64,000 nt of DNA from positions 32,001-96,000 of the IMG/VR virus record IMGVR_UViG_3300033121_001619; one strand, written 5' to 3'. This document shows positions 71 to 62,552 of the stretch, piece after piece. The DNA comes from a virus (lineage: Duplodnaviria > Caudoviricetes). The notes under the pieces are model-generated. The model was not told the DNA's origin. It did not search any database and saw only the letters and a list, made by a program, of their open reading frames with translations. Every line of letters starts with the position of its first letter. Position 1 is the stretch's first letter. Both the position numbers and the translations under genes were made by a program.

Positions 71-778
71 ATGAAGAGGCTGTTTGCACTCGTCACGTCG
101 ATCATTGTCCTCGTCGCATGCGAGAAAAATGAGAGACCGCATCGTCCCATGGGAGAATCGGAGACGTGCGTCTCCGATTGTGGTGGTCAGGGTGGAGGTG
201 GATCGGGAGGCGCCGATGGCTCTGGTGGGGGTTCCGGGGGAGATGCGGGCGGAGGGGGTGGTGTCAGTGCGGTCGGTTCTTCGGCCCCGGTGACGAAGTT
301 AGACATGACTGATGCCATCACCGTCTTTCGAGGTCGTCATTTCTTCCTGAGCAACTTCTATCCAGCGTCTCTCTGGATGGATGGTGTTCAATACAAGACG
401 GCTGAGCACGCTTATCAGGCGTCCAAAGCCGACAACGTCGAAGCGCGTGATGTCATCAGGAACGCATCGAGTCCTGCCGAGGCCAAGCGCCTCGGCAGGT
501 GCGTCAAACTTCCCGCAGATTGGGATCAACGTCGTCTGTCCGTCATGAGGAACGTCATCGAAGCGAAATTCGACAATCCGTTCTTGTCCGAACTTCTTCG
601 ACAGACGGGCGATGCTGACCTGATCCACGAGAACACGTGGAACGACAGATTCTTCGGCGTGTGCCGTGGATCGGGAGAGAATTGGCTAGGTCGCCTATTG
701 ATGGAGACGCGAGATCGTCAGACGAGAGTGACGAACGTGTTACCATCGACTCATGAAGAGAGTCCGGATCACGACTAG
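71..778 (+). CDS. NADAR (YbiA-like) domain protein with an N-terminal lipoprotein signal and Gly-rich linker
   Basis: NADAR motifs FLSNFY, TAEHAYQASK, AKRLGR, EAKF, LIHENTWNDRFFG and GENWLGRLLM. The N-terminus MKRLFALVTSIIVLVAC ends in a lipobox. An in-frame TTA at 740-742 may be the real end. Confidence 0.85.
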   Translation: MKRLFALVTSIIVLVACEKNERPHRPMGESETCVSDCGGQGGGGSGGADGSGGGSGGDAGGGGGVSAVGSSAPVTKLDMTDAITVFRGRHFFLSNFYPASLWMDGVQYKTAEHAYQASKADNVEARDVIRNASSPAEAKRLGRCVKLPADWDQRRLSVMRNVIEAKFDNPFLSELLRQTGDADLIHENTWNDRFFGVCRGSGENWLGRLLMETRDRQTRVTNVLPSTHEESPDHD

Positions 779-1241: not shown

Positions 1242-3650
1242 TCGTAAGCGATTTCTTGCCTTGCCGTCGAAATATGGCATGGAAGAAGTGGCCTCGGTGC
1301 TGACGTTACAAGAGTCAGTGGACGTCGGACTCACTGACTCCACGTAGATGTGTCCTATCCCACGATCGTCCTTCGTGTAAGTCCTACGAACGAACTGGAC
1401 GTTCACGGGTGACGAACCGACGTCCTTCACCGACTTGATCACGGGATTGTCGACGGTCGTCGTCCGAGTACGAATGGCGTCTCGTGAAAACACCTCGTTG
1501 CCGACGATCGTCGATTCCACGTTGATGAACTTCGTGTACTGACGCTGTTCGAGCATGTCGCGGAAGTGTCCGAAGTGATCACGTCTGAATACTGCGCGCG
1601 TGTGATGAGGAAGTCCGCTCACGAGCCCGTGCTTCCATCCCCTGATGATGGGTGCCACTCCGTAGTGGTGCGATCGATACAATTCAGAAGATCCTGACGT
1701 CTGAGGCGTGTAGGACCCATACGTCGGGTTGAATCTCGTGTCCACGATGCGAGTCCTGAACGTCGGATAGTTGTTCCCTCCTATCCTAGAAGTCCTGTCG
1801 ATATCGAACGACGCAGACGTGTATTGGACTATCTCGACGTCGTCGATGGCAGCCAACGATCCCGTCGGAGAAGACGTCGATGATCCTAGCCTGAAATCGA
1901 ACGTCACGCGATACTCGCCAGGATCGTATGGATAAGGGTGGGGAACTGACGAGGCACCCACATAGGGATTCTTTCCAACGCCTGACACTCGCGTGTCGTA
2001 TTGAGACATGGTCACGTAAGTGTCGCCCAATACCACCTCGATCGATTGGATCGAGTCGACGCCACTCGAAGATGCCTCACCGCTTGGGCGTCCAGGAAGA
2101 CCGGAGAAAAACACGTACAGACCTGACGTCGGTGAACCCACGACGGCTCTTTTGTATCTCAAGATCCACGGATAAGACGACGTCACGTCCATCACGCAGA
2201 TGGACGACGACGTAGCGTCACCTCCGAAAGTCGCGATGGTGTCGGAGACCAGTACCCAGCTATTCGATGGAGACGAGGACGACACCCAGTAGACGCCGGG
2301 AGCCTTGACGCTCGACCCGGATATCGTGTTGTAGGTGACGGATGATCCGCTACCGAAGTAATTGGTGGAGTCGAGATACGTCGACGTCCTGCACGCTGCC
2401 CTCCATGGATTTTGACCCACGTTGGGGGACATCGACCAGCTGACTTCCAGCCAAGACGACGCCAACGTATCGCCGAAATATGAGGCACTTTGCACCATGT
2501 GATACGACGCCGACGAGGCAGTCTCATTCACGGTGAAGCTTTGCGTGTATGCCGTCACACCTGCGGAATCGTCGAACAAGTACCTGTCGTGACAGACCGT
2601 GTTGAGATCTCCGAATCCATACAGGAACTTGAACAAGTCGACATCCGTCATTGATCCCGTGATCTTTTCCGATCCGACGTCGGAGAAGCCCAGGTCGACG
2701 AGGTAACCGTGACTATTCAACCTGTCTAGCCTGACGTCGGCGGGCACGACGTTGCCGTGCGTGACATCGTCATCGAAACGTGACGATGTCAAGTTTCGAG
2801 GCTTGTGAAGAGTCAGCATCACGGCCTCTCCGCTCGATCCTGTCGCAGAGTACGTGGATCGATATCCATTGCTTCCGGTGCCGAGGAGGTCGTAGGGAAT
2901 CCTTCCAGGCAGGATGGGAATTAGGCCTTTGGTCGGACGGGGCTTCTTGGACAGGATTGGTGATTCCACGCCATCGACGCTAACGTTTGCTTGAATGACG
3001 GTCGTTGCATTGAACGTCATGTTGGCTAGACGATTGACGGAGGAGTAACGAGCCTCGAAGGGATACGACCACGTCCACGTGTCGTCGTTCAGCGGATCGA
3101 TGTCAAAACCTTCTCCTGACCGGTCCCTTTGGGATCCGTTGAAGGTGACGAAAGCGACATTCCCTGTGACGACGTTGCGAAACGGGCTGAGGAAGGTGTT
3201 GGAAGCGTTGGACGGCGTCCACAAGTGTCGTCCTTGTGATTTGAGACAGTCCTTGTAGTCGGGGACGCAAGAGTCGTAGTACCTCTCGGTCTCATCAAAA
3301 CACTGAACGTTCCTGTAGTTCGTGTGCGACACCCTCTCGTCCCACGGGACTAGACGATATGACAGGTGTGGAACCTGCGTAACGTCAGACGATCCATACG
3401 TGTCGTCGAGAATGGGCGCAGTCGAAGAGTAATACTTGCTGAAAGCTCTCCCACGACTCGGCACCGACGTCGAGAATATGGGTCTCTTACTGCCGACTTT
3501 GAACGACGGCAAGACGACGAGCATCGTCCCAGTGACGTGGTCGTCAATCATCTTCCCGTAGAACGAGGCGTCGTAGTCGACGTCGTACTGATCAAGGACT
3601 GGATCGTCTCCAATGACGTCCTTGACGACTTCGGTGAAAATTGGCGTCAA
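1170..3650 (-). CDS. Ser/Thr-rich putative virion structural protein
   Basis: 826-aa ORF in the structural operon with many SGS/TGS motifs. Its C-terminal block (FRRDHFGHFRDMLEQR...PYFDGKARNR) is followed immediately by TTA at 1247-1245. Confidence 0.75.
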   Translation of the reverse strand: MTPIFTEVVKDVIGDDPVLDQYDVDYDASFYGKMIDDHVTGTMLVVLPSFKVGSKRPIFSTSVPSRGRAFSKYYSSTAPILDDTYGSSDVTQVPHLSYRLVPWDERVSHTNYRNVQCFDETERYYDSCVPDYKDCLKSQGRHLWTPSNASNTFLSPFRNVVTGNVAFVTFNGSQRDRSGEGFDIDPLNDDTWTWSYPFEARYSSVNRLANMTFNATTVIQANVSVDGVESPILSKKPRPTKGLIPILPGRIPYDLLGTGSNGYRSTYSATGSSGEAVMLTLHKPRNLTSSRFDDDVTHGNVVPADVRLDRLNSHGYLVDLGFSDVGSEKITGSMTDVDLFKFLYGFGDLNTVCHDRYLFDDSAGVTAYTQSFTVNETASSASYHMVQSASYFGDTLASSWLEVSWSMSPNVGQNPWRAACRTSTYLDSTNYFGSGSSVTYNTISGSSVKAPGVYWVSSSSPSNSWVLVSDTIATFGGDATSSSICVMDVTSSYPWILRYKRAVVGSPTSGLYVFFSGLPGRPSGEASSSGVDSIQSIEVVLGDTYVTMSQYDTRVSGVGKNPYVGASSVPHPYPYDPGEYRVTFDFRLGSSTSSPTGSLAAIDDVEIVQYTSASFDIDRTSRIGGNNYPTFRTRIVDTRFNPTYGSYTPQTSGSSELYRSHHYGVAPIIRGWKHGLVSGLPHHTRAVFRRDHFGHFRDMLEQRQYTKFINVESTIVGNEVFSRDAIRTRTTTVDNPVIKSVKDVGSSPVNVQFVRRTYTKDDRGIGHIYVESVSPTSTDSCNVSTEATSSMPYFDGKARNRLRLVRVLTVRDRSSCVIGEKHRKVE

Positions 3651-17275: not shown

Positions 17276-18740
17276 GTAACTTCACCAGGACCTTGCTGGC
17301 GTACTTCCCTTGATTCTTTCCGAGTTGGGCCGACGCGTTATTTGCCGTTCCTTTCTTGACCGACCCTGCGAACGAACCTCCCATCGTCGTGACGAGTTGT
17401 CCTCCGACGACGGTACCGTCCTCCGTCGTCACGGGCTGATCCGTGCACACGACGCCCTTGTCAGCATCGGGTCCCCCTAGACGAACGTATCCCTTTTCGC
17501 TCGGCGTGAAGACGATGTCTCCGTTCCTCTTTATCGTGATCGAAGCGAAGCGAGTTGGATCCGTCGACTCGTCTTTCCTGCCCGTGAAACCTTCCTCGGT
17601 GGACTCGTCGTAGTCGGTGACGATGAACGATATGTCGGATCGTGCTATGATTCGCACCTTGTCTGACTTCAGGACGATCCCAGCGTCTCCGTCGGCTGAG
17701 TCCGTCACATCGGGAAACGATATTTCGAACGACCCGTCGACCTTCATTCGCTGTGAGACTAGAAGACGACTCCTGTCATTCTTGAAATCTGGGTCGCCCT
17801 CCCTGGGCGCTAGAGCATCAGGCGACTTGTCCAATTCTCTCTTGAGAACGGTTCCCTTCTTGGATTTGGACGCGTCGACGAAGCTCGTCGTATCTGCTGC
17901 CCTTCCAGCCGTGTCAGCAGTGTAACCTCGGCCGGCCACGATATCGATCGACCCGGCGCGGCCTTGTTCCGTCAATGGATCGATATCGATCGATCCGGAT
18001 CTAGCGAAGCCAAGACTGATCAGTGTGTTGTTCGATCCTTCGAGGACCACGTCTGGAGACCTCTTGCGAAATCTCGGGACCGGTTCGTAGACGTGTCTCT
18101 TCTTCGCGGTCGTCTCTTGGACTATGGACTCGAATATGTCATCCTCATGACCGACGAGGATGCTTCCGTCTCTGACGGCAACGCGCTCTCCGTCGACTGT
18201 CGTGACAGGAGTGTTTCTCAACTCGAACCACGGGTCGGACCCATCTGACTTTGACTTGGAACCGGGATGGAACGAAGGTTCGGATGACCTACCGGGATGC
18301 GAGTGATTGACGTCGTCACTAGTGTGTGGTTCGACGATCCTGCACACCCAATACGCCACGTCGACGGTCCGTGCCGCTGGATTTTCCACGAACACCCAGA
18401 CCGCCTCTCCCGGTTTTGCCGGAAGAGAGAGACTAGATGGGAAAAATGGGAACACGAACATGGGCGGTGAATCGTCTCCGACTCTCTGACCCACGATCGT
18501 GTTTCGTGGAAGAACATTGACCAGATCCATGTTCGATACGCCCAACCTCTGCCACTCCTCGGCTAGCTCTGCGCGAGAGTCCGGACTCATGTTGGGATCG
18601 TCGACAACGTCGATGACGATCATTCTGACGAAGTGCGGTTTTTGAGGAGGGACGTACGTCCTTCCTGCGTTTTCCACGTTTAGTCGACCCTCGACGAAGT
18701 CGACGAGGTTGTCCTGAGTCGTTCGTCTATAGTCAGACAA
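17193..18740 (-). CDS. putative baseplate hub/spike (gp5/gpV-like) protein
   Basis: FPFFP...LPAKPGEAVWV (OB-fold-like), DVVLEGSNNTLISLG and IVLKSDKVRIIAR. Probable TTG start at 18740 after GAGG. In-frame TTA at 17279-17277 lies just before the next ATG. Confidence 0.65.
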   Translation of the reverse strand: MSDYRRTTQDNLVDFVEGRLNVENAGRTYVPPQKPHFVRMIVIDVVDDPNMSPDSRAELAEEWQRLGVSNMDLVNVLPRNTIVGQRVGDDSPPMFVFPFFPSSLSLPAKPGEAVWVFVENPAARTVDVAYWVCRIVEPHTSDDVNHSHPGRSSEPSFHPGSKSKSDGSDPWFELRNTPVTTVDGERVAVRDGSILVGHEDDIFESIVQETTAKKRHVYEPVPRFRKRSPDVVLEGSNNTLISLGFARSGSIDIDPLTEQGRAGSIDIVAGRGYTADTAGRAADTTSFVDASKSKKGTVLKRELDKSPDALAPREGDPDFKNDRSRLLVSQRMKVDGSFEISFPDVTDSADGDAGIVLKSDKVRIIARSDISFIVTDYDESTEEGFTGRKDESTDPTRFASITIKRNGDIVFTPSEKGYVRLGGPDADKGVVCTDQPVTTEDGTVVGGQLVTTMGGSFAGSVKKGTANNASAQLGKNQGKYASKVLVKLHAQSASGGRPGWQWMYGPCRHTHTPWR

Positions 18741-23134: not shown

Positions 23135-23971
23135 TTACGTGCAGTGAGGTGTCTCCTTGAACTCACACCACGTACACGACAGACGATTCTTGAACGCACG
23201 CCTGGCATTGACGGACCCAATCATGTTGTTGACGACCTTGAGAGACCTTCCTATCGGGACCGGTCCCATGGAGACGTCGAATAGTTCCACGTGGGATCCT
23301 GGTTTTGCATTACGCTTCAGGATGACGAAGCCACATCGAACATCCGTTGGTTGCAATTGAGGGTTCTTCTTGAGCCAGAAATTCTTGTAGAGTGCTAGCT
23401 GGTATTTCAGCGTCTCATCTTGACGTTTTTCCTTGAACCAACCGGCTCGAGACGTCTTCCAGTCGAGTATCCACTGAATTCTCTTGCCTCGTTTGCCCGT
23501 CGCTTCTATGACGGCATCGATGAAACCTTTGAATGCATGAGGATGACCATCGATCGATTCGTACAGGGCATGCTCAGCGTCGATCGTTTTCCACTCAGGA
23601 AAGGTGGCGTCCAAGAACGTCGGCACTTCGTTGACTATCTCCACGGAGTCTTGAAGGGCAGACTTCAGGGAGTCGTCATTGAAGTCTGCGATGCCAGCCT
23701 CCGATCTTTCCTTCCATGTATTGCGAAATGACTCCTCTAGCTGAGCGACGTCGATGATCCGCGTCTTCAGGAAGTTCTCGAGACAGTCGTGCACTATCGT
23801 TCCGAATTCCAGCGTCGGATTGGGAGTGAACGACGACAGGCCTTTCACGTGGATGAGATTGTGTCTCCACGAACACTCACTCCACGTCTTGACTTCGGAG
23901 AACGAGACGTGCGGTTTTCCGGTCGGAAGGTTAACGAATTGACTGGTGTGCTCGGTCTTCTCTTGATCCAC
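23135..23971 (-). CDS. PD-(D/E)XK nuclease (RecB/Cas4-like)
   Basis: HVSFSEVKTWSEC, FKGFIDAV, ILDWKTS, QLALYK and terminal CTWCEFKETPHC. GTG start at 23971 after GAGGGA. Confidence 0.88.
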   Translation of the reverse strand: MDQEKTEHTSQFVNLPTGKPHVSFSEVKTWSECSWRHNLIHVKGLSSFTPNPTLEFGTIVHDCLENFLKTRIIDVAQLEESFRNTWKERSEAGIADFNDDSLKSALQDSVEIVNEVPTFLDATFPEWKTIDAEHALYESIDGHPHAFKGFIDAVIEATGKRGKRIQWILDWKTSRAGWFKEKRQDETLKYQLALYKNFWLKKNPQLQPTDVRCGFVILKRNAKPGSHVELFDVSMGPVPIGRSLKVVNNMIGSVNARRAFKNRLSCTWCEFKETPHCT

Positions 23972-42172: not shown

Positions 42173-42423
42173 ACAAGATCGATACCACCACCAAGCAAGT
42201 CAAGGATGCATTCGAGTACGCCAAGTCAAAGACGATATCGATGATCGTCAGCGCCGCACCGCCTCAGACCCCGGACGAGGAGAGGCGTCTCAAGACAGTG
42301 ATCGATTGCGTCACTAGCGGAATCGACGAGGCGTTCCTAAAGACCGCACCATCACTCCAGAAGTCGTTTGCTGCGCTGCTCGCGGGGAAGTTAGCATGTC
42401 CACAGTCGGACACATCCACCTGA
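42169..42423 (+). CDS. hypothetical protein
   Basis: 84-aa ORF. In-frame TTA at 42391-42393 lies 2 nt before the next ATG. Confidence 0.65.
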   Translation: MNKIDTTTKQVKDAFEYAKSKTISMIVSAAPPQTPDEERRLKTVIDCVTSGIDEAFLKTAPSLQKSFAALLAGKLACPQSDTST

Positions 42424-43103: not shown

Positions 43104-43751
43104 ATGGGACGTCAATCAAATTCCAGGCTATCGAATTCGTCTCGCCAAGATTCACGACATCCCAGTGCCGATGCCGAATTCGGAGGAATGGCTCTCTCTG
43201 CCGGCGATGCTAGCAGGATCGTCGTCTTGCATGGCGAGGTCAACGAGACGTCTGTCTCGGTCGTTGTCGCCAATCTCTTGCATATGGCTTCGGTCGACTT
43301 GAGTCCCATCTACCTTGTCATCTCGACGTACGGTGGATCTGTCGATGAGATGTTCACGTTGTACGACACCATCAAATTCCTCCCATGCCCAGTCCACACG
43401 ATCGCTTTGGGAAAGGTCATGTCAGCTGGAGTGTTGCTGTTGGCTTCTGGGACGAAGGGTAAACGCATGATCGGAAAGTCTGCGAGGATCATGATACACC
43501 CGGTTTCGGGCGGAGCGACGGGAAATGTGTTTCAGGTCGTTGCAGAAGCCGACGAACACGTCAGACTCCAGGACCAAATGGCGGACGCGATCGCCAATGA
43601 GACGAAGATGACACGTCAGAAGGTCAGGAAGATCATGTCGACCGGTCACGACGTCTACATCACGCCCGATGACGCTGTGAAGTACGGCATCGTGGACAAA
43701 ATCATCGGAGCTTCCGTCAGGGACGTCATGAAAAGTTCGGAGTTAGTGTAG
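43104..43751 (+). CDS. clpP: ATP-dependent Clp protease proteolytic subunit
   Basis: ISTYGGSV, GKVMSAG (Ser), IMIHP (His), D, AVKYGIVDKII. In-frame TTA at 43743-43745. Confidence 0.9.
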   Translation: MGRQSNSRLSNSSRQDSRHPSADAEFGGMALSAGDASRIVVLHGEVNETSVSVVVANLLHMASVDLSPIYLVISTYGGSVDEMFTLYDTIKFLPCPVHTIALGKVMSAGVLLLASGTKGKRMIGKSARIMIHPVSGGATGNVFQVVAEADEHVRLQDQMADAIANETKMTRQKVRKIMSTGHDVYITPDDAVKYGIVDKIIGASVRDVMKSSELV

Positions 43752-43764
43752 TACAACATAGATC

Positions 43765-45402
43765 ATGCCACGTCATGACTATCGACCCTTCTTTCCGTTC
43801 GATGACGTGCGTTCGGAGCAGGATGAGGCGATAAGATTTGCAATCGATGCATTCGAGTCTGGGAAGAAGTACGTAGTTCTCGAGCTTCCGACCGGGATTG
43901 GAAAATCAGCCATAGGACTCACGGTAGCACGCTACATGAATCAGCACGGAGACGACGTGCTTGATGCGGAAGGTCTACCTGTTCAGCGCACGTCATACGT
44001 GCTGACAACACAAAAGATACTCCAGGATCAGTATGTCAAGGATTTCGGAGAGGCGTCCGGAAGAGACGTCCTGAGATCCATCAAGTCATCGTCGAATTAT
44101 TCGTGTGGATTCTACTCAGGATCGACGTGTGCTGACTCGCGAAGACTCATGCGACTCATGTCAAAGGAAGTCGCAGGAACAGAATTCGAGAGACACTGTA
44201 AGTCATCGAAATGCCCGTACGCGTCTGCCAAGGCAGAGTTCGAGGCGTCTCTGGTGTCGTTGACGAATTTTCCGTTCTTCCTCGCTAGCAAGAATCTGTC
44301 TACACGCTCAACGCTGGTGATCGATGAGTGTCACAATGCTGAGTCGGAATTGGCTAAATTCGTGGAAGTCTCCTTTTCGGAGAGATTCGCGAAGGACATA
44401 CTGAAGTGCAAGGTCCCGAAGATAGACTCGCAGCAAGCAGCCTTCGATTGGGTGTGTGCTTCTTATAAGCGTGCGCTTCTCAAGCATCAAAAGTCGATCA
44501 ATGAGCGTCTGAAGTCAGGAGATCGTGGAGAGAACTCCAGACAAGCCGAGATGCTGGAGAAGCACGTGGAGAAAGTCCTGAAGTTCATCCAGATATACGA
44601 TGAATCTAACTGGGTGATGAACGTCGTGTACCCGAAAGATGGAGCCAAGAGAGGATTTCGACGCTTCGAATTCAAGCCGGTCGACGTGTCCCACTTCGGT
44701 GGAGAACTTTTCGGGAACGCGGGAAGGATTCTAATGATGTCTGCCACAATAGTGGACAAGGACGTCTTTTGTCGATCGATTGGAATTCCCGTTGACGACG
44801 CGGCCTACCTGAGGCTAGCTTCCCCTTTCTCCGTCGAGAATCGTCCCGTCCTCTTCATGCCCGTGGGATCGATGTCGAAATCGAATATCGACAGAACGCT
44901 TCCGAAGATGGTCGAGACCATAAAAGAGATCTTGGCGATCCACCCCGACTCAAAGGGAATCATACACACGGCCAATTACAGGATAGCCAAGCACATCCAA
45001 GACTCGATACCGTCGGATCGATTCGTCTTCCACGAAGCTAGCAACAGAGAGGAAGCTCTCAAGTTTCACCTTGCGTCGAAGGATCCGACGGTCATAGTGT
45101 CTCCCTCGATGATGGAGGGAGTCGACTTGTCAGACGACGCGTCACGTTTTCAAGTGATCTGCAAGATACCGTTCCCGTATTTGGGAGACCTCATGGTGAA
45201 GCGGCGCATGGAGAGGGATTCAACGTGGTATCCTTACGTCACCGCGAAATCGATCATTCAGTCACTCGGAAGATCCATCAGGAACAAGGACGACCACGCG
45301 ATGTCGTACATCCTCGACAGCGACTGGACCAACTTCTACGCCAGGAATGAGAGAATGTTCACTGACGACTTTCGTTTGGCACTTCACAGTTTACTGCGGT
45401 GA
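43765..45402 (+). CDS. DinG/XPD-like SF2 helicase
   Basis: PTGIGKS, LQDQY, DECH, MSAT, SMMEGVDL, KIPFP, QSLGRSIR and ILD motifs. In-frame TTA at 45391-45393. Confidence 0.9.
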   Translation: MPRHDYRPFFPFDDVRSEQDEAIRFAIDAFESGKKYVVLELPTGIGKSAIGLTVARYMNQHGDDVLDAEGLPVQRTSYVLTTQKILQDQYVKDFGEASGRDVLRSIKSSSNYSCGFYSGSTCADSRRLMRLMSKEVAGTEFERHCKSSKCPYASAKAEFEASLVSLTNFPFFLASKNLSTRSTLVIDECHNAESELAKFVEVSFSERFAKDILKCKVPKIDSQQAAFDWVCASYKRALLKHQKSINERLKSGDRGENSRQAEMLEKHVEKVLKFIQIYDESNWVMNVVYPKDGAKRGFRRFEFKPVDVSHFGGELFGNAGRILMMSATIVDKDVFCRSIGIPVDDAAYLRLASPFSVENRPVLFMPVGSMSKSNIDRTLPKMVETIKEILAIHPDSKGIIHTANYRIAKHIQDSIPSDRFVFHEASNREEALKFHLASKDPTVIVSPSMMEGVDLSDDASRFQVICKIPFPYLGDLMVKRRMERDSTWYPYVTAKSIIQSLGRSIRNKDDHAMSYILDSDWTNFYARNERMFTDDFRLALHSLLR

Positions 45403-57646: not shown

Positions 57647-58393
57647 ATGGGATTTCTAGACAACTCGACGAACAACCTCATCATTGACGCAGTCCTGACG
57701 GATTATGGTCGTCAGCTCTTGGCTCAGGCGAACGGATCTTTCAACGTCAAGTACTACGCATTCGGTGACGATGAGGTCGATTACCGTCTGATCAAGCGAT
57801 ATGGGAGGACGGTCGGCAAGGAGAAGATCGAGAAGAACACTCCGATCCTCGAGGGCATCACGAACCCAGCTGTCGCCTTGAAGTACAAGCTTGTCGGTCG
57901 TGAGACGTCGGGAGAGACGTCGGCGGCATTCATGCCAATCCTTCAGACGACATCGACGCCAGCTCTGGTCAAGAACACCCAGTCGTCCTACACGGTGACG
58001 GTCGATCTCTACTACAACAACTCGACGGGAGCCGCAGTACCAGTAGAACTCATCCAGCCCGTGTACAAGATAGCTGTGTCCGATAGGTTCTTCACCATAA
58101 CGGATTCCGGGATGGGTAGGATAACAGCTCCTGCAGCTGGATCGTCGATGATAAATGCGGGAGATCCGAACAGGACGGTCACGTACACGTACACCGTGAC
58201 GAACAATTCCACATCGATATCTTTCGTCGTCACCGCCAAGAACATCGACAACACGACGCTGTCGGTGTATGGGAAGAGGATCAACTCCACTTCGTCGACC
58301 AGAGAGATCACAAGCTACATCACGGTCACGGGGGAGAGACATGGATGCACCATCAACATACCCGTGACTTACAGGGCTTCTCTCACCTTATAG
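57647..58393 (+). CDS. putative tail/baseplate structural protein
   Basis: MGFLDNSTNNLIIDAVLTDYGRQLLA...YAFGDDEVDY. The gene ends TTA TAG. Confidence 0.8.
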   Translation: MGFLDNSTNNLIIDAVLTDYGRQLLAQANGSFNVKYYAFGDDEVDYRLIKRYGRTVGKEKIEKNTPILEGITNPAVALKYKLVGRETSGETSAAFMPILQTTSTPALVKNTQSSYTVTVDLYYNNSTGAAVPVELIQPVYKIAVSDRFFTITDSGMGRITAPAAGSSMINAGDPNRTVTYTYTVTNNSTSISFVVTAKNIDNTTLSVYGKRINSTSSTREITSYITVTGERHGCTINIPVTYRASLTL

Positions 58394-58405: not shown

Positions 58406-59698
58406 ATGTCGACCCAAAAGCAGCTACTTCCATCCGACAAGAAGGTGACTCGAACGTTCTTGACGCAGCTCATAGACGTCATCCAGGAGGACGTATCGTC
58501 GTCAGCTTCGCGCAGGAAGTATCAGTCGTTCGTGACTGGAGGCATCGGACCCGGGGTGACGTCGAGTCTGTTTCAGACCGTATACGACCAAGATTTCACC
58601 CTACAGACTGCCAACCCGGTCTTCGACATAACGTTCGGTCTCGCGCCACCCGACGTCAACGTCGATGGTATAGCCGCAACGACATCGACGGCTGTGGACG
58701 ACGGTGGCAAGTATCTTTATCCGAGCAGCTCTCTCATGATGAGAGAGAAGACGGACATTTACGGTCAATTCTCACAGATTCTCCTCGGAGACAGGGGAGA
58801 GACTTTCAAACTGCCAGTCGATCCAACGTTCACGACGTCTCAGACGACGACCGACATCGATGCCGCACTGTTCATCGCCTTCAAGCGTCTCTTCTCGCGC
58901 GATCAGATCAAGCGTGAGACCTTCGCGATGAAGTTCTATCAGACCGCTTCCTACGTCAGCACCATCGCCGGACAGGACACGCCTCCGGCAGCCGATTCCA
59001 GCGGAGTGACGAACATCTACCGGACTTCGACGACAGGCTCGGCGATCTACACCGACATAGGATCTTCGGATTCTCGCTTCTTCAGCGTGGGTGGACAGTA
59101 CGGATACCTCGTCAACGCTGCCAACACGTCGAACGCCGTCGGCCTGATCTACTACGATCATGGCATCGTCGTCCTCGACATCGAGAAGGTCACGTCAGGA
59201 TCTCAGTTCATATCGGGAACCATCTCTGCCATGAACTCCCTGGGACAGACGGTCCTCGGAGGCGCTGGGACCGAGACAGCATACACGGCGAAGGTCGTCC
59301 CAGATCTCTTGACGTCCGGATCGATCGACGACGTGATCGATCACTTCAGCTACGCTCGATTCGGAAGCGGCACTCAGACGGCGTTCACGTTCCAGAACTC
59401 GACGTACATCAACTCGTCACTGATCTTCTGCAACGCCCTGCCAGACGATTTCAATTACTCTTCGAATCCCACGTACACCGAGGAGAGCGGAGACTTCAAG
59501 GGTAGACTGACGATATACGATCCCGCCCTTCCAGAGGAGTCTCAGGAGCCTTTTGCCTTCATCACCACGATCGGCCTGTATGACAACACGGGAGGGTTGG
59601 TGGCTGTGGCGAAACTCAGCCGGCCCGTGGAAAAGAATCCTGGGCGAAACCTTTCATTTAGGGTCCGGACTGACTATTTATGTCAGTCATACGTGTGA
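58406..59698 (+). CDS. putative tail/baseplate structural protein
   Basis: C-terminal FNYSSNPT...ITTIGLYD...VAVAKLSRPVEK...RVRTDY, then TTA at 59678-59680 overlapping the next ATG. Confidence 0.8.
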   Translation: MSTQKQLLPSDKKVTRTFLTQLIDVIQEDVSSSASRRKYQSFVTGGIGPGVTSSLFQTVYDQDFTLQTANPVFDITFGLAPPDVNVDGIAATTSTAVDDGGKYLYPSSSLMMREKTDIYGQFSQILLGDRGETFKLPVDPTFTTSQTTTDIDAALFIAFKRLFSRDQIKRETFAMKFYQTASYVSTIAGQDTPPAADSSGVTNIYRTSTTGSAIYTDIGSSDSRFFSVGGQYGYLVNAANTSNAVGLIYYDHGIVVLDIEKVTSGSQFISGTISAMNSLGQTVLGGAGTETAYTAKVVPDLLTSGSIDDVIDHFSYARFGSGTQTAFTFQNSTYINSSLIFCNALPDDFNYSSNPTYTEESGDFKGRLTIYDPALPEESQEPFAFITTIGLYDNTGGLVAVAKLSRPVEKNPGRNLSFRVRTDYLCQSYV

Positions 59699-62385
59699 CA
59701 TCAGACGACGTGCAGCACACCACGGTGATCACCACACCGAGGCGTTACTACGCGTCTTCGTCACACGGAACGACGGGATCTGTTCTGGTGAGACCTAGGG
59801 CATCATCGTACGAGAAGTCGACCGATGCTTTCGAGGACAGACACGAGGATTCATCGTACGATTCTCTCTTGAGATCGACGCTGTCGAGAGCGAAGTACTT
59901 CAGGGCGTCGTCACGCAACATCTTCACGACGATGCAGACGTATGTGTCGGGGGTCAATGTCCTGAGCGAAAAGGACGACGTCGTGATGGACGTCACCCGA
60001 TTCACCCCCGGCACCAGTTTCACGAAGTATTTCTTGCGCAAGGGTATCGTGAAGGACACGCTGATGCGTTATTATCGCACGGCATATCCTCAGGCCACGT
60101 GGGCCTACACGAATTCGAACGCCCTGAATTTCTTCACGGCGTTCTCCGGATCGACTCAGCTAGTTCCTACGGGATCGGTCCTGCTCTATCCCAACGTCGT
60201 GACGTCATCAGCTCCGGAGCACGTGGGTTACGTCTCTGGATCCTACTGTCTTTCCGGAGCCTTCACTTTCGATCTACACGTGAATCCTCGCTACGAGGAC
60301 GACGGGATAGACGCAGGACACTTCAAGGACGGGACAATCCTTCACCTGTCTTCGTCGTATGCTCTCTCCTTGGTGACTGGGTCTCACAAGGACGCTAGGG
60401 GATTCCCGCTAGGATTTCGCCTCAAGCTTCAGCTGAGTCACAGCGCCGGTCTGGCACCGTCGTCCACGAATCCCGGGTCGTATCCGCACGATCTCACGTT
60501 CCTGTCCGACGATAATTCTTTGACGAGGAATCGATGGCATCACGTCATCGTCAGATGGGGAACGTCACTCGTGGACGCTGGGACGGGGTCCTTCGTCATC
60601 GATGGTCGCCGCTCGGGAAATTTCGTGATACCGTCGGGAACGATATCACCAAGACCGTTCGTGAATTCTCTCAATCCCGACGTCCTGTGTCTGGGAAACT
60701 TCTACGAGGGAACGAATTACGGCACGTCTGCCCAAAGCATATTCTTCTCTCCAGACAACGCTACGCGAGACGGCGTCGACCAGCTGACGTCCGAGAACTC
60801 CGTCGAGGATCCTGTCAACTATCGATTCAATCATCCGCTCAAGGCCGAACTGCACGACGTCCTCATTCGACGTCATTATCTCACCGACAGTGAGATCGTC
60901 GCCTCTGGTTCCACGGGTCACGGACGATCCGTCAGGGACCAGATGGACTTCGCCTTCTACGTTCCACCGTTCTTCGTCCAAGAGGGACCGATCTTGCGGT
61001 GGGTCGGTGACCGAGGCGGTGTGCTGCAAACACCGTTCTTCGAGGTGGATGGTACCACGGACGACCCGTTCAACGTGGCCATGTCGTTCGGGGTCGGCGG
61101 TCACATGATCAACCTGGAGAATTTCGTGAAGGACTTCTCGACAGGTAGGTTTCCTCGTCTATTTCGACTCACGGGATCGACAATCGATCACACGACCGAT
61201 CTCCTCGATGCCAACGACGTGATCTATTCCGATCCCGGCGTCGTGAAGAGGAACTTGTCCATTTTGCCGTGCGACGACGGGACGTTTGATCCGTGTTACG
61301 AGCTTCTCGACGACGAGAACTACACCAACAAATACGTGGACGCCGAGGGAGTGACGGACCTGAGTCTCATCAGCCTGTCTGGACTCTTGTCGACGTCATC
61401 CTTTCAGGCAGGAGGAATCCACGCGGAGTCGCCTGATGACTACGTCGAATTCCTCTACGGACCGTCTCCGGAGAAACCGGGTCTCGAGCCCGGGAAGTCG
61501 TTCTTGAAGTACATGAGTCTCCTGACAGCGTCCATAGGATCGGACGGTCAGATCGATCGTGGAGTTCAGCAGGGTGCCCCTCTCACGATTTATCAGCGTA
61601 CGCAAGACTCCTCGTCGAATCAAGTCACGTTCTTCAACGTGTCAAACATCTTCTACGGACGAAGGATCCTGCCCGGATCCGTCGTGTTGCGTGACTCATC
61701 GATGACAGGTAGCTCAGGAGTCGTGTCAATCACATTGAGAGACGACGCGATGGGAAGCCTCTATCGGGCAGACTCCGACACTCCCCATCACATCAAGAAC
61801 ACCGTTGGGAACGTCTTCTACGACGAGGGAATAATCGTCGTCAAGAGTCCTCACTTGAATTTCTTTGGCAAGGATGGCTTCGAGCTCGAATTCAAGGGTG
61901 TACAGCACATCAATGTCACACGCTATGAGATCGTCGCACCTTCTGGCATGCTCAATTCCTCGTCCAATCCCACGCATCCAGGCTGGGATCTCCGACCATC
62001 GTCCAATCCGATCGACACGGAACCCTTCGTATACATCAGCGGCATCAATCTCCACGACTCCAACATGAATGTCGTCGCTCGTGTCAGACTGGCTCAGCCG
62101 GTCATGAAGAGAGAGGGAGATCGTCTTCTCTTCCGCGTGGCCATGGATTCGTTATGTCGACTCGCAGGAGACGACGAACAAAGCGAAGATACCATCGCGG
62201 CGATCACGTCTCGACCAAGACCGGTCTCACTTGCAGGTATCGAAGCGGCTGGGAGAAATCCTACATGGATCACTTGGACTCCGATCCCAGGGTCGTCGAC
62301 TGGCTCTACGAGGCCCTATCCATCGAGTACGTGTCCAACAAACGAACGGGCAAGATTCGTCGCTATTTCCCGGACTTCGTGGTGA
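59680..62385 (+). CDS. virion protein with a LamG-like domain and a C-terminus paralogous to 58406
   Basis: WHHVIVRW; GNVFYDEG; NSSSNP...YISGINLHD...VVARVRLAQPVMK...FRVAMDS, then TTA at 62152-62154. The remaining 77 codons overlap the next gene. Confidence 0.8.
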   Translation: MSVIRVTSDDVQHTTVITTPRRYYASSSHGTTGSVLVRPRASSYEKSTDAFEDRHEDSSYDSLLRSTLSRAKYFRASSRNIFTTMQTYVSGVNVLSEKDDVVMDVTRFTPGTSFTKYFLRKGIVKDTLMRYYRTAYPQATWAYTNSNALNFFTAFSGSTQLVPTGSVLLYPNVVTSSAPEHVGYVSGSYCLSGAFTFDLHVNPRYEDDGIDAGHFKDGTILHLSSSYALSLVTGSHKDARGFPLGFRLKLQLSHSAGLAPSSTNPGSYPHDLTFLSDDNSLTRNRWHHVIVRWGTSLVDAGTGSFVIDGRRSGNFVIPSGTISPRPFVNSLNPDVLCLGNFYEGTNYGTSAQSIFFSPDNATRDGVDQLTSENSVEDPVNYRFNHPLKAELHDVLIRRHYLTDSEIVASGSTGHGRSVRDQMDFAFYVPPFFVQEGPILRWVGDRGGVLQTPFFEVDGTTDDPFNVAMSFGVGGHMINLENFVKDFSTGRFPRLFRLTGSTIDHTTDLLDANDVIYSDPGVVKRNLSILPCDDGTFDPCYELLDDENYTNKYVDAEGVTDLSLISLSGLLSTSSFQAGGIHAESPDDYVEFLYGPSPEKPGLEPGKSFLKYMSLLTASIGSDGQIDRGVQQGAPLTIYQRTQDSSSNQVTFFNVSNIFYGRRILPGSVVLRDSSMTGSSGVVSITLRDDAMGSLYRADSDTPHHIKNTVGNVFYDEGIIVVKSPHLNFFGKDGFELEFKGVQHINVTRYEIVAPSGMLNSSSNPTHPGWDLRPSSNPIDTEPFVYISGINLHDSNMNVVARVRLAQPVMKREGDRLLFRVAMDSLCRLAGDDEQSEDTIAAITSRPRPVSLAGIEAAGRNPTWITWTPIPGSSTGSTRPYPSSTCPTNERARFVAISRTSW

Positions 62386-62552
62386 GATACGTCGATGGAC
62401 GGGTCGTGATCGTGGAAGTGAAGCCGTCACGAAAGGTCGGCAAGGCTGTCAACCTAAAGAAAGCCAATGCTGCTCGAACGTGGTGCGGTGACAACGGTTT
62501 TGACTACGTCATATTGACGGAGCACGAACTGGTGTCAATGGGCCTAATCTAG
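62154..62552 (+). CDS. TnsA-like / T4 gp4 head-completion nuclease
   Basis: YRSGWE, WLYE, IEY, RYFPDF, IVEVKP and ILTE motifs. Confidence 0.88.
   Translation: MSTRRRRRTKRRYHRGDHVSTKTGLTCRYRSGWEKSYMDHLDSDPRVVDWLYEALSIEYVSNKRTGKIRRYFPDFVVRYVDGRVVIVEVKPSRKVGKAVNLKKANAARTWCGDNGFDYVILTEHELVSMGLI

Follow-up and report, generated by a model that had tools for sequence, protein, structure and literature searches.

TTA as a probable end of open reading frames in a lineage of large T4-like phages

Stop codons have been recoded to sense codons in crAss-like, Lak, and other large phages, in which TAG is read as Gln and TGA as Trp, and UUA is an unassigned codon in Micrococcus luteus. The mitochondrial code of labyrinthuleans (Thraustochytrium) is NCBI table 23. 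UUA acts as a stop codon in these mitochondria and in pedinoflagellate plastids, and both UUA and UUG do so in the mitochondria of Marsupiomonadales and Pseudoscourfieldia (PMC12574857); in Streptomyces, UUA is rare or regulated (bldA) (PMC10732093). A literature search for a sense codon turned stop in a phage or bacterium found none, the literature searched having such changes only for mitochondria and plastids. Here we analyze a window of 64,000 nucleotides (nt), bases 32001-96000 of the 126,319-bp IMG/VR virus record IMGVR_UViG_3300033121_001619 (G000), in which two paralogous genes, one directly after the other, each run up to the sequence TTATG. TTA is missing inside the genes of this record and sits exactly at the positions where orthologues have their stop codons. 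Judging from the sequences compared here, TTA (UUA) very probably marks the end of open reading frames (ORFs) in this phage lineage and is no longer read as Leu.

The closest known case is the UUA stop of labyrinthulean mitochondria and pedinoflagellate plastids, followed by the stop-to-sense recoding of large phages; the phage case is an organellar codon change within the setting of large recoded phages. As in the organelles, the same codon would have passed from Leu to termination under bacterial-type translation in which TGA, TAA, and TAG remain stops, and the change is recognized by the same signs, namely a codon that is missing inside genes and present at the stops of homologues. It differs in that it concerns a double-stranded DNA phage dependent on a bacterial host rather than an organelle with a dozen genes, in that three or more separate branches of a single phage family show it beside sisters with the standard meaning, and in that the organellar cases are tied to changes in release factor 2 (RF2; Ser204) or release factor 1 (RF1), whereas no such factor was found here. 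Unlike in the UUA/UUG-stop mitochondria, TTG stays a sense codon in the phage (574 uses). With the recoded phages it shares genes that are misread by the standard bacterial code (table 11), a suppressor tRNA and a transfer-messenger RNA (tmRNA), and, in a relative, a release factor with 49 tRNAs. However, the direction is opposite (sense to stop), the change reaches beyond late genes (among those that TTA closes are helicase, protease, terminase, and portal genes), and standard stops still close ORFs at a coding density of 95%. Streptomyces and Micrococcus are similar in that UUA is avoided in genes, with effects that hinge on the absence of the cognate tRNA, but those genomes exceed 70% guanine plus cytosine (GC) and UUA is simply rare in them, not placed at orthologous stop positions, whereas the phage pattern holds at 35%, 45%, and 55% GC.

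CheckV estimates the record (GC 55%) to be 38% complete, which corresponds to a genome of ~330 kb; coordinates marked C1 are positions in the whole record, not in the window. The comparison set comprised strains 99% identical to the window from other samples (L004-L010), syntenic relatives at ~60% identity (L011-L014), and three further records: G001 (the L055 record, 309 kb, 91% complete), a relative that reads TTA as Leu and served as reference for orthologue pairs; its sister G002 (the L067 record, GC 45%); and G003 (the L080 record, GC 35%). A family set of 80 IMG/VR loci was obtained by alignment-based search, a pattern search of IMG/VR with a single protein having given no match, and no close DNA relatives of the record were found among GenBank phages. 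Both paralogues are conserved across a large T4-like phage family whose members carry Portal_T4 and Terminase_6N.

In-frame TTA occurs 0 times in the 40,675 codons of the 126-kb record, against ~317 expected from positional base frequencies, a deficit much too large for chance; the corresponding counts for other codons are 332 (CTA), 496 (ATA), 196 (GTA), and 574 (TTG). The triplet itself is present in the other two frames, 65 and 186 times, much like TAA. When ORFs are drawn from stop to stop, in-frame TTA is confined to two places, upstream of the likely start and the final 0-158 codons. Adding TTA as a fourth stop gives 133 genes, with ends at TGA (84), TTA (21), TAG (14), and TAA (13), while coding bases fall by 0.3% and doubly covered bases drop from 2503 to 1500; the control stops CTA, GTA, TTT, or ATT produce 178-199 fragments and lose 13-22% of coding bases. 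Distances from TTA to the next stop follow the same distribution as those after TGA, TAG, or TAA. Genes closed by TTA lie on both strands and in the replication, protease, and virion modules, so the device is not confined to late genes. Under table 11 the coding density is 95%, with long intact ORFs closed by TGA, TAG, or TAA; coding-density comparisons do not discriminate on whether TAA or TAG is sense, and TAA-closed ORFs look like ordinary ends.

These counts bear on the suggestion that errors of sequencing or assembly, or modified bases, make TAA or TGA appear as TTA, an explanation in whose favour nothing was found and whose probability we put close to nil. An artefact would not strip TTA from gene interiors, the same record has 13 TAA and 84 TGA stops that came out as normal, and no common flanking motif was found around the 21 TTA sites. 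The same TTATG is present in seven contigs (assemblies) from different JGI and SRA samples, the cluster of the phage's own protein likewise has members from several JGI and SRA samples, and the same pattern recurs in unrelated samples, G002 and G003.

The two paralogues and the genes on either side of them are arranged as follows.

57647..58387, plus strand: upstream gene of 247 amino acids (aa), ending ...YRASLT, followed by TTA (58388-58390) and then TAG
58406..59677, plus strand: first paralogue (P0001), a conserved phage protein of 424 aa ending FRVRTDY
59678..59680, plus strand: TTA as putative terminator of P0001, its A being the first base of the next ATG (TTATG)
59680..62151, plus strand: second paralogue (P0002), 824 aa, ending FRVAMDS, with a ConA/LamG-like jelly-roll domain
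62152..62154, plus strand: TTA as putative terminator of P0002, its A being the first base of the next ATG (TTATG); identical in L004-L010
62154..62552, plus strand: TnsA-like endonuclease, T4 gp4-like 'head closure' gene, 132 aa
62155..62385, plus strand: spurious standard-code tail (76 codons and a TGA), non-coding in this frame

A first-pass annotation of this DNA had noted that both paralogues run directly into a TTA whose A opens the next ATG, and direct reading bears this out: the junction after P0001 reads TTT AGG GTC CGG ACT GAC TAT TTA TG (TTA at 59678, ATG at 59680) and that after P0002 reads TTC CGC GTG GCC ATG GAT TCG TTA TG (TTA at 62152, ATG at 62154). The C-terminal domain that it saw in both proteins is confirmed by BLASTP, which aligns residues 329-423 of P0001 with residues 738-823 of P0002 (E 2e-8); the shared ending is F-R-V-x-x-D-x, or R-x-x-x-D-x, and not R-x-x-D-x as had been written. 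Read with table 11, P0001 gains 6 codons (LCQSYV) up to a TGA at 59696-59698. P0002 gains the 77 codons that the annotation had reported, up to the TGA at 62383-62385, for a product of 901 aa that overlaps the gene at 62154-62552 by 232 nt, again as reported. The pair is a valid internal control for TTA as stop, mainly via the second gene: the proposal to use it in this way is strong for P0002 and weak for P0001, where the standard code makes a difference of just 6 codons.

Since the next gene is in the -1 frame at both junctions, and a rare A-site codon can promote shifts (PMC10732093), programmed -1 frameshifting or hopping at TTATG might fuse each protein to the product of the next gene. 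We consider this highly improbable. Neither GAC TAT TTA nor GAT TCG TTA is slippery and there is no X XXY YYZ heptamer, most TTA sites in the record have no overlapping ATG after them, and relatives have separate genes with intergenic spacers and standard stops.

The positions at which homologues end bear on the reading of TTA as a terminator. Database homologues of P0002 number 1097, and about 118 of the best 120 end in ...LFKVAFD followed by a single residue, usually F, Y, or W, with a standard stop after it, one position past the conserved Asp. Among the readable IMG/VR homologues, 72 of 74 end exactly 20 residues after an AQP motif, at a standard stop that corresponds to the TTA of the window; of the remaining two, L080 has TTA at the stop position and the end of L094 could not be read. 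Both sets agree with the expectation in the first-pass annotation that homologues should end at about xxD[FY]*, and homologues carrying the tail, which it had named as evidence to the contrary, are confined to near-identical strains. Orthologues of P0001 (74-76% identity) have the C-termini FRVRLDF* or RCRIDF*, with TAA, TAG, or TGA at the position of the TTA, and orthologues of the upstream 247-aa gene in L011, L013, and L014 end in ...ASLT or ...ASLI plus TGA at the same residue. Three consecutive genes in L011-L014 have standard stops at the TTA positions of the window:

L011-L014, ...ASLT plus TGA: window, ...ASLT plus TTA at 58388
L011-L014, ...FRVRLDF plus TAA/TAG/TGA: window, FRVRTDY plus TTA
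L011-L014, ...FKVAFD[FYW] plus stop: window, FRVAMDS plus TTA

Similar correspondences extend to other genes. The terminase ends DYRWLLT plus TTA, and relatives have DFSWLYK or DFSWLFR plus a stop. A gene of ~100 aa before the portal is closed by TTA and is in frame with the portal start 9 codons on; in relatives these are two separate genes. The portal itself ends at TTATG, its match to the relatives' stop being only rough. Among orthologue pairs with G001, counting alignments that reach within 3 residues of both C-termini, TTA stops stand opposite TGA, TAA, or TAG in 5 cases for G000, 22 for G002, and 5 for G003. The portal ORF (C1:103540-108081; 1513 aa against 669-689 aa in relatives) and the terminase (C1:101313-103097; 594 aa against 538 aa) are both larger than in relatives, probably through inteins or other insertions.

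Under the standard code, TTA would be a very rare Leu codon and the C-terminal extensions would be real, including the 901-aa product that overlaps the TnsA-like gene. Public gene callers do predict products of 901 and 910 aa, and a ribosome of the E. coli type would decode TTA as Leu, yet this reading is very unlikely: it cannot account for the absence of internal TTA alongside the 21 TTAs that stand at orthologous stop positions, homologues other than near-identical strains have no tail, and it would fuse the small protein to the portal. The tail of P0002 scores as non-coding, with a codon score of -0.23 in its own frame and +0.25 in the overlapping TnsA frame, where real C-termini of this genome have a mean of 0.38 and a minimum of -0.04. 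The 137-codon 'tail' that the terminase would acquire behaves likewise (-0.39, against +0.65 in the frame of the next gene), and the P0002 tail has no Pfam or PHROG family match. The overlapped gene matches PF08722 (4.8e-17; 62.7 bits, cut-off 26.5; residues 44-123) and phrog_218 (4.6e-28, from residue 26), and has syntenic orthologues in L011-L014. In the strains L004-L010 the TGA of the tail is lost through three substitutions, each at a third codon position of the TnsA frame and synonymous there, so that the table-11 product becomes 910 aa and not 901 aa; the stop of the tail shifts between strains and leaves the TnsA protein sequence as it is. On the reading of TTA as stop, the 77 extra codons come only from applying table 11. 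Public gene calls on L004-L010 omit the TnsA-like gene (L004:12475-12870 and equivalents), the start of which is covered by the mis-extended 910-aa ORF.

Two insertions are present near these junctions in the strains 99% identical to the window. The first, a mobile one of 1.5 kb, lies directly before the TTATG junction (window 59676/59677; L004:8502-9997) and carries a zinc-finger/TnsA-like homing-endonuclease gene together with a 116-aa gene that also ends at that TTA. With this insertion, P0001 of the sister strains ends in ...TDYARKTRFSFTK-TGA, a 10-residue extension, and L013 has a similar insertion element and a similar extension of P0001. The second, of 1.7 kb, follows the gp4-like gene (window 62527/62584; L004:12849-14574) and carries a 306-aa gene and Methyltransf_21.

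The tmRNA of the phage provides a TTA site outside ordinary genes. It lies beyond the end of the window at C1:119726-120104 (L003:227-605; Rfam 64 bits), adjoining tRNA-Thr(CGU), and its tag frame reads ...DSAPLALAA and then TTA. Were this TTA read as Leu, as the standard code requires, the tag would gain 11 codons and its ...LAA end would be destroyed. The homologous tmRNA in G001 matches it at all 21 nt leading up to that point and then has TGA; a tmRNA-tag pattern search in IMG/VR gave no match. No tRNA reading UUA was found in the 126-kb record (38% complete). A tRNA with anticodon UUA, that is, an ochre suppressor reading UAA, is encoded at C1:14662-14734 (L002:1663-1735), 17 kb before the window (ARAGORN; Rfam 51.8 bits); it has the loop CUUUAAU, a C-A mismatch atop the anticodon stem, and A73, and TAA still closes 13 ORFs. 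G001 also has a tRNA(UUA), along with two tRNA(CUA). Just upstream of the tRNA(UUA) gene of the record, a 96-aa ORF (L002:1340-1630; C1:14339-14629) has a GTG start and a GAGAGG ribosome-binding site 6 nt upstream.

If TTA terminates, translation of the two paralogues would end after Tyr424 and Ser824, and the overlapping ATG of TTATG would start the next gene, in the manner of ordinary TGATG or TAATG junctions. Release could be performed by a bacterial-type class-I release factor with a widened codon range, supplied either by the host or by the unsequenced ~60% of the phage genome. Granted that TTA is a terminator, we regard a release factor as the moderately probable agent, most of the rest falling to an unassigned codon cleared by rescue or drop-off.

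This latter possibility can be stated as a rival in its own right, in which UUA is a 'hungry' codon: with no usable tRNA-Leu(UAA), ribosomes would stall and the chain would be freed by ArfB-type rescue or by drop-off followed by peptidyl-tRNA hydrolase. The lack of a UUA-reading tRNA and of a release factor in the record fits this proposal, as does G001, whose 49 tRNAs include Leu anticodons CAG, UAG, and CAA and not UAA. In a review (PMC10732093), peptidyl-tRNA drop-off and Pth cleavage are given as the outcome when UUA has no cognate tRNA. The sole local hint is the 96-aa ORF adjoining the tRNA(UUA) gene, which resembles PTH2, although its match (12.3 bits, E 0.016) is below the cut-off and NCBIfam gives nothing for it. 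We nevertheless consider the hungry codon an unlikely explanation. Stall-and-rescue is slow and fits poorly with a codon that closes 16-36% of genes, terminase and portal included. Factor-type release is favoured because TTA does so across replication and virion modules, because the TTATG overlaps look like ordinary termination-reinitiation junctions, because a tmRNA whose own tag frame is closed by TTA cannot depend on tmRNA rescue, and because organelles with a UUA stop are reported with a changed RF2 (Ser204) or RF1 (PMC12574857).

Several observations weigh against TTA as a factor-read terminator. The case is made at the level of sequence. P0001 carries its 10-residue extension in the insertion-bearing strains, so its exact C-terminus is not strictly required. 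No RF-1 domain was detected in the 126-kb record at E<=1. An RF2 in which Ala or Gly replaces the Ser that precedes PFD was found 0 times in IMG/VR, where 18 of 18 real viral RF2 genes found have SPFD, and the search for [AG]PFD RF2 in 185,579 species genomes returned one Pseudomonas isolate with normal TTA use and one out-of-frame match; these pattern scans are narrow and assume that Ser204 is the one in SPF. A single release factor was found in the family, that of G001, a phage that still reads TTA as Leu, and the gene for it has an in-frame TTA at the conserved Leu of TVAV-L-PE:

L096:1453-2122 = G001:C1:260529-261198, minus strand: short RF1-like release factor that lacks domain 1; gene located in a block of 49 tRNA genes

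In this factor the PxT motif of RF1 is replaced by PPT and the His of GRxHTS by Gln, and codon 37 of its gene is followed by a prfB-type shift site (AGGGGT CTT TGA G). As the cause of termination at TTA it was rejected, G001 using TTA inside conserved genes, this one included. The available parts of G002 and G003 contain no RF domain. Genes common to the TTA-stop phages and not in G001 were only homing endonucleases, an endolysin, and unknowns.

Other genes of the window that TTA is predicted to close are given below.

299..301, plus strand: TTA closing a 76-aa ORF; next ORF in the same frame
740..742, plus strand: TTA closing a 145-aa ORF; next ATG at 753
1245..1247, minus strand: TTA closing an 801-aa ORF; removes a 72-nt convergent overlap
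17277..17279, minus strand: TTA closing a 487-aa ORF; next ATG 1 nt downstream (TTACATG)
23932..23934, minus strand: TTA closing a 211-aa ORF
42391..42393, plus strand: TTA closing a 74-aa ORF; ATG 2 nt downstream
43743..43745, plus strand: TTA closing a head-maturation-protease-like gene
45391..45393, plus strand: TTA closing a DNA helicase gene; phrog_2488 match to profile position 575/579

For the 487-aa ORF, the alignment with the G001 orthologue reaches the last residue of both proteins.

The first-pass annotation had called the two paralogues tail proteins, a label that finds no support in PHROGs, Pfam, or PDB: neither paralogue matched a tail or baseplate family in PHROGs or Pfam, and the PDB profile search was empty. 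P0001 had no Pfam, PHROG, or PDB match at all. P0002 gave a weak match to LamG_3 of Pfam (17 bits), and its fold search (Foldseek, Atlas) retrieved only generic lectin/pentraxin-type jelly rolls. AlphaFold models of the two were poor, with predicted local distance difference test (pLDDT) values of 28 and 50. They lie between large genes without a family match and the gp4-like gene, and a virion role for both is plausible.

Across the 80 IMG/VR loci of the family, TTA use tracks GC content, with outliers. Close relatives have TTA as an internal codon at 3-9 per 1000. In G003, TTA is found only at gene ends (6 of 19 genes), and the P0002 homologue ends in ...FKVTLDF followed by TTATG. In G002, 36 of 100 genes end in TTA at a loss of 1% of coding bases; control codons taken as stops in G002 and G003 cost 30-75%. 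TTA is rare in G001, yet it occurs inside conserved genes such as the helicase, from which we infer that G001 reads it as sense. Stop codons turn over fast between these two sisters: at 18 orthologous ends G001 has TGA and G002 has TTA, and GC drops from 56% to 45%. In a tree of the P0002 family (a quick method, with support by the Shimodaira-Hasegawa-like approximate likelihood ratio test, SH-aLRT, only), G000, G003, and G002 (with G001) occupy three separate well-supported places, each beside TTA-using sisters; the trait would therefore be recent and recurrent, or would follow the host. It is very likely that the change of UUA from Leu to stop operates in bacteriophages and that a single family of large T4-like aquatic phages has evolved or adopted it on three or more separate occasions, over a GC range of 35% to 55% and always beside sisters in which TTA is Leu.

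For annotation, the consequence is that table-11 gene callers mis-annotate these phages, giving P0002 as 901 or 910 aa instead of 824 aa, fusing neighbours such as the small protein and the portal, and dropping overlapped genes such as the TnsA-like gene in the sister contigs. For gene flow, incoming genes with an internal TTA would be truncated, and TTA-ending genes would be read through in standard hosts. The finding raises the question of what reads UUA as stop in a bacterial cell, and the sisters G001, which lacks the trait, and G002, which has it, form a natural pair in which to look for the factor or the host. If the reading is true, either some bacterial hosts use four termination codons, or the phages possess a transferable factor through which UUA joins the stop codons while the cell is infected.

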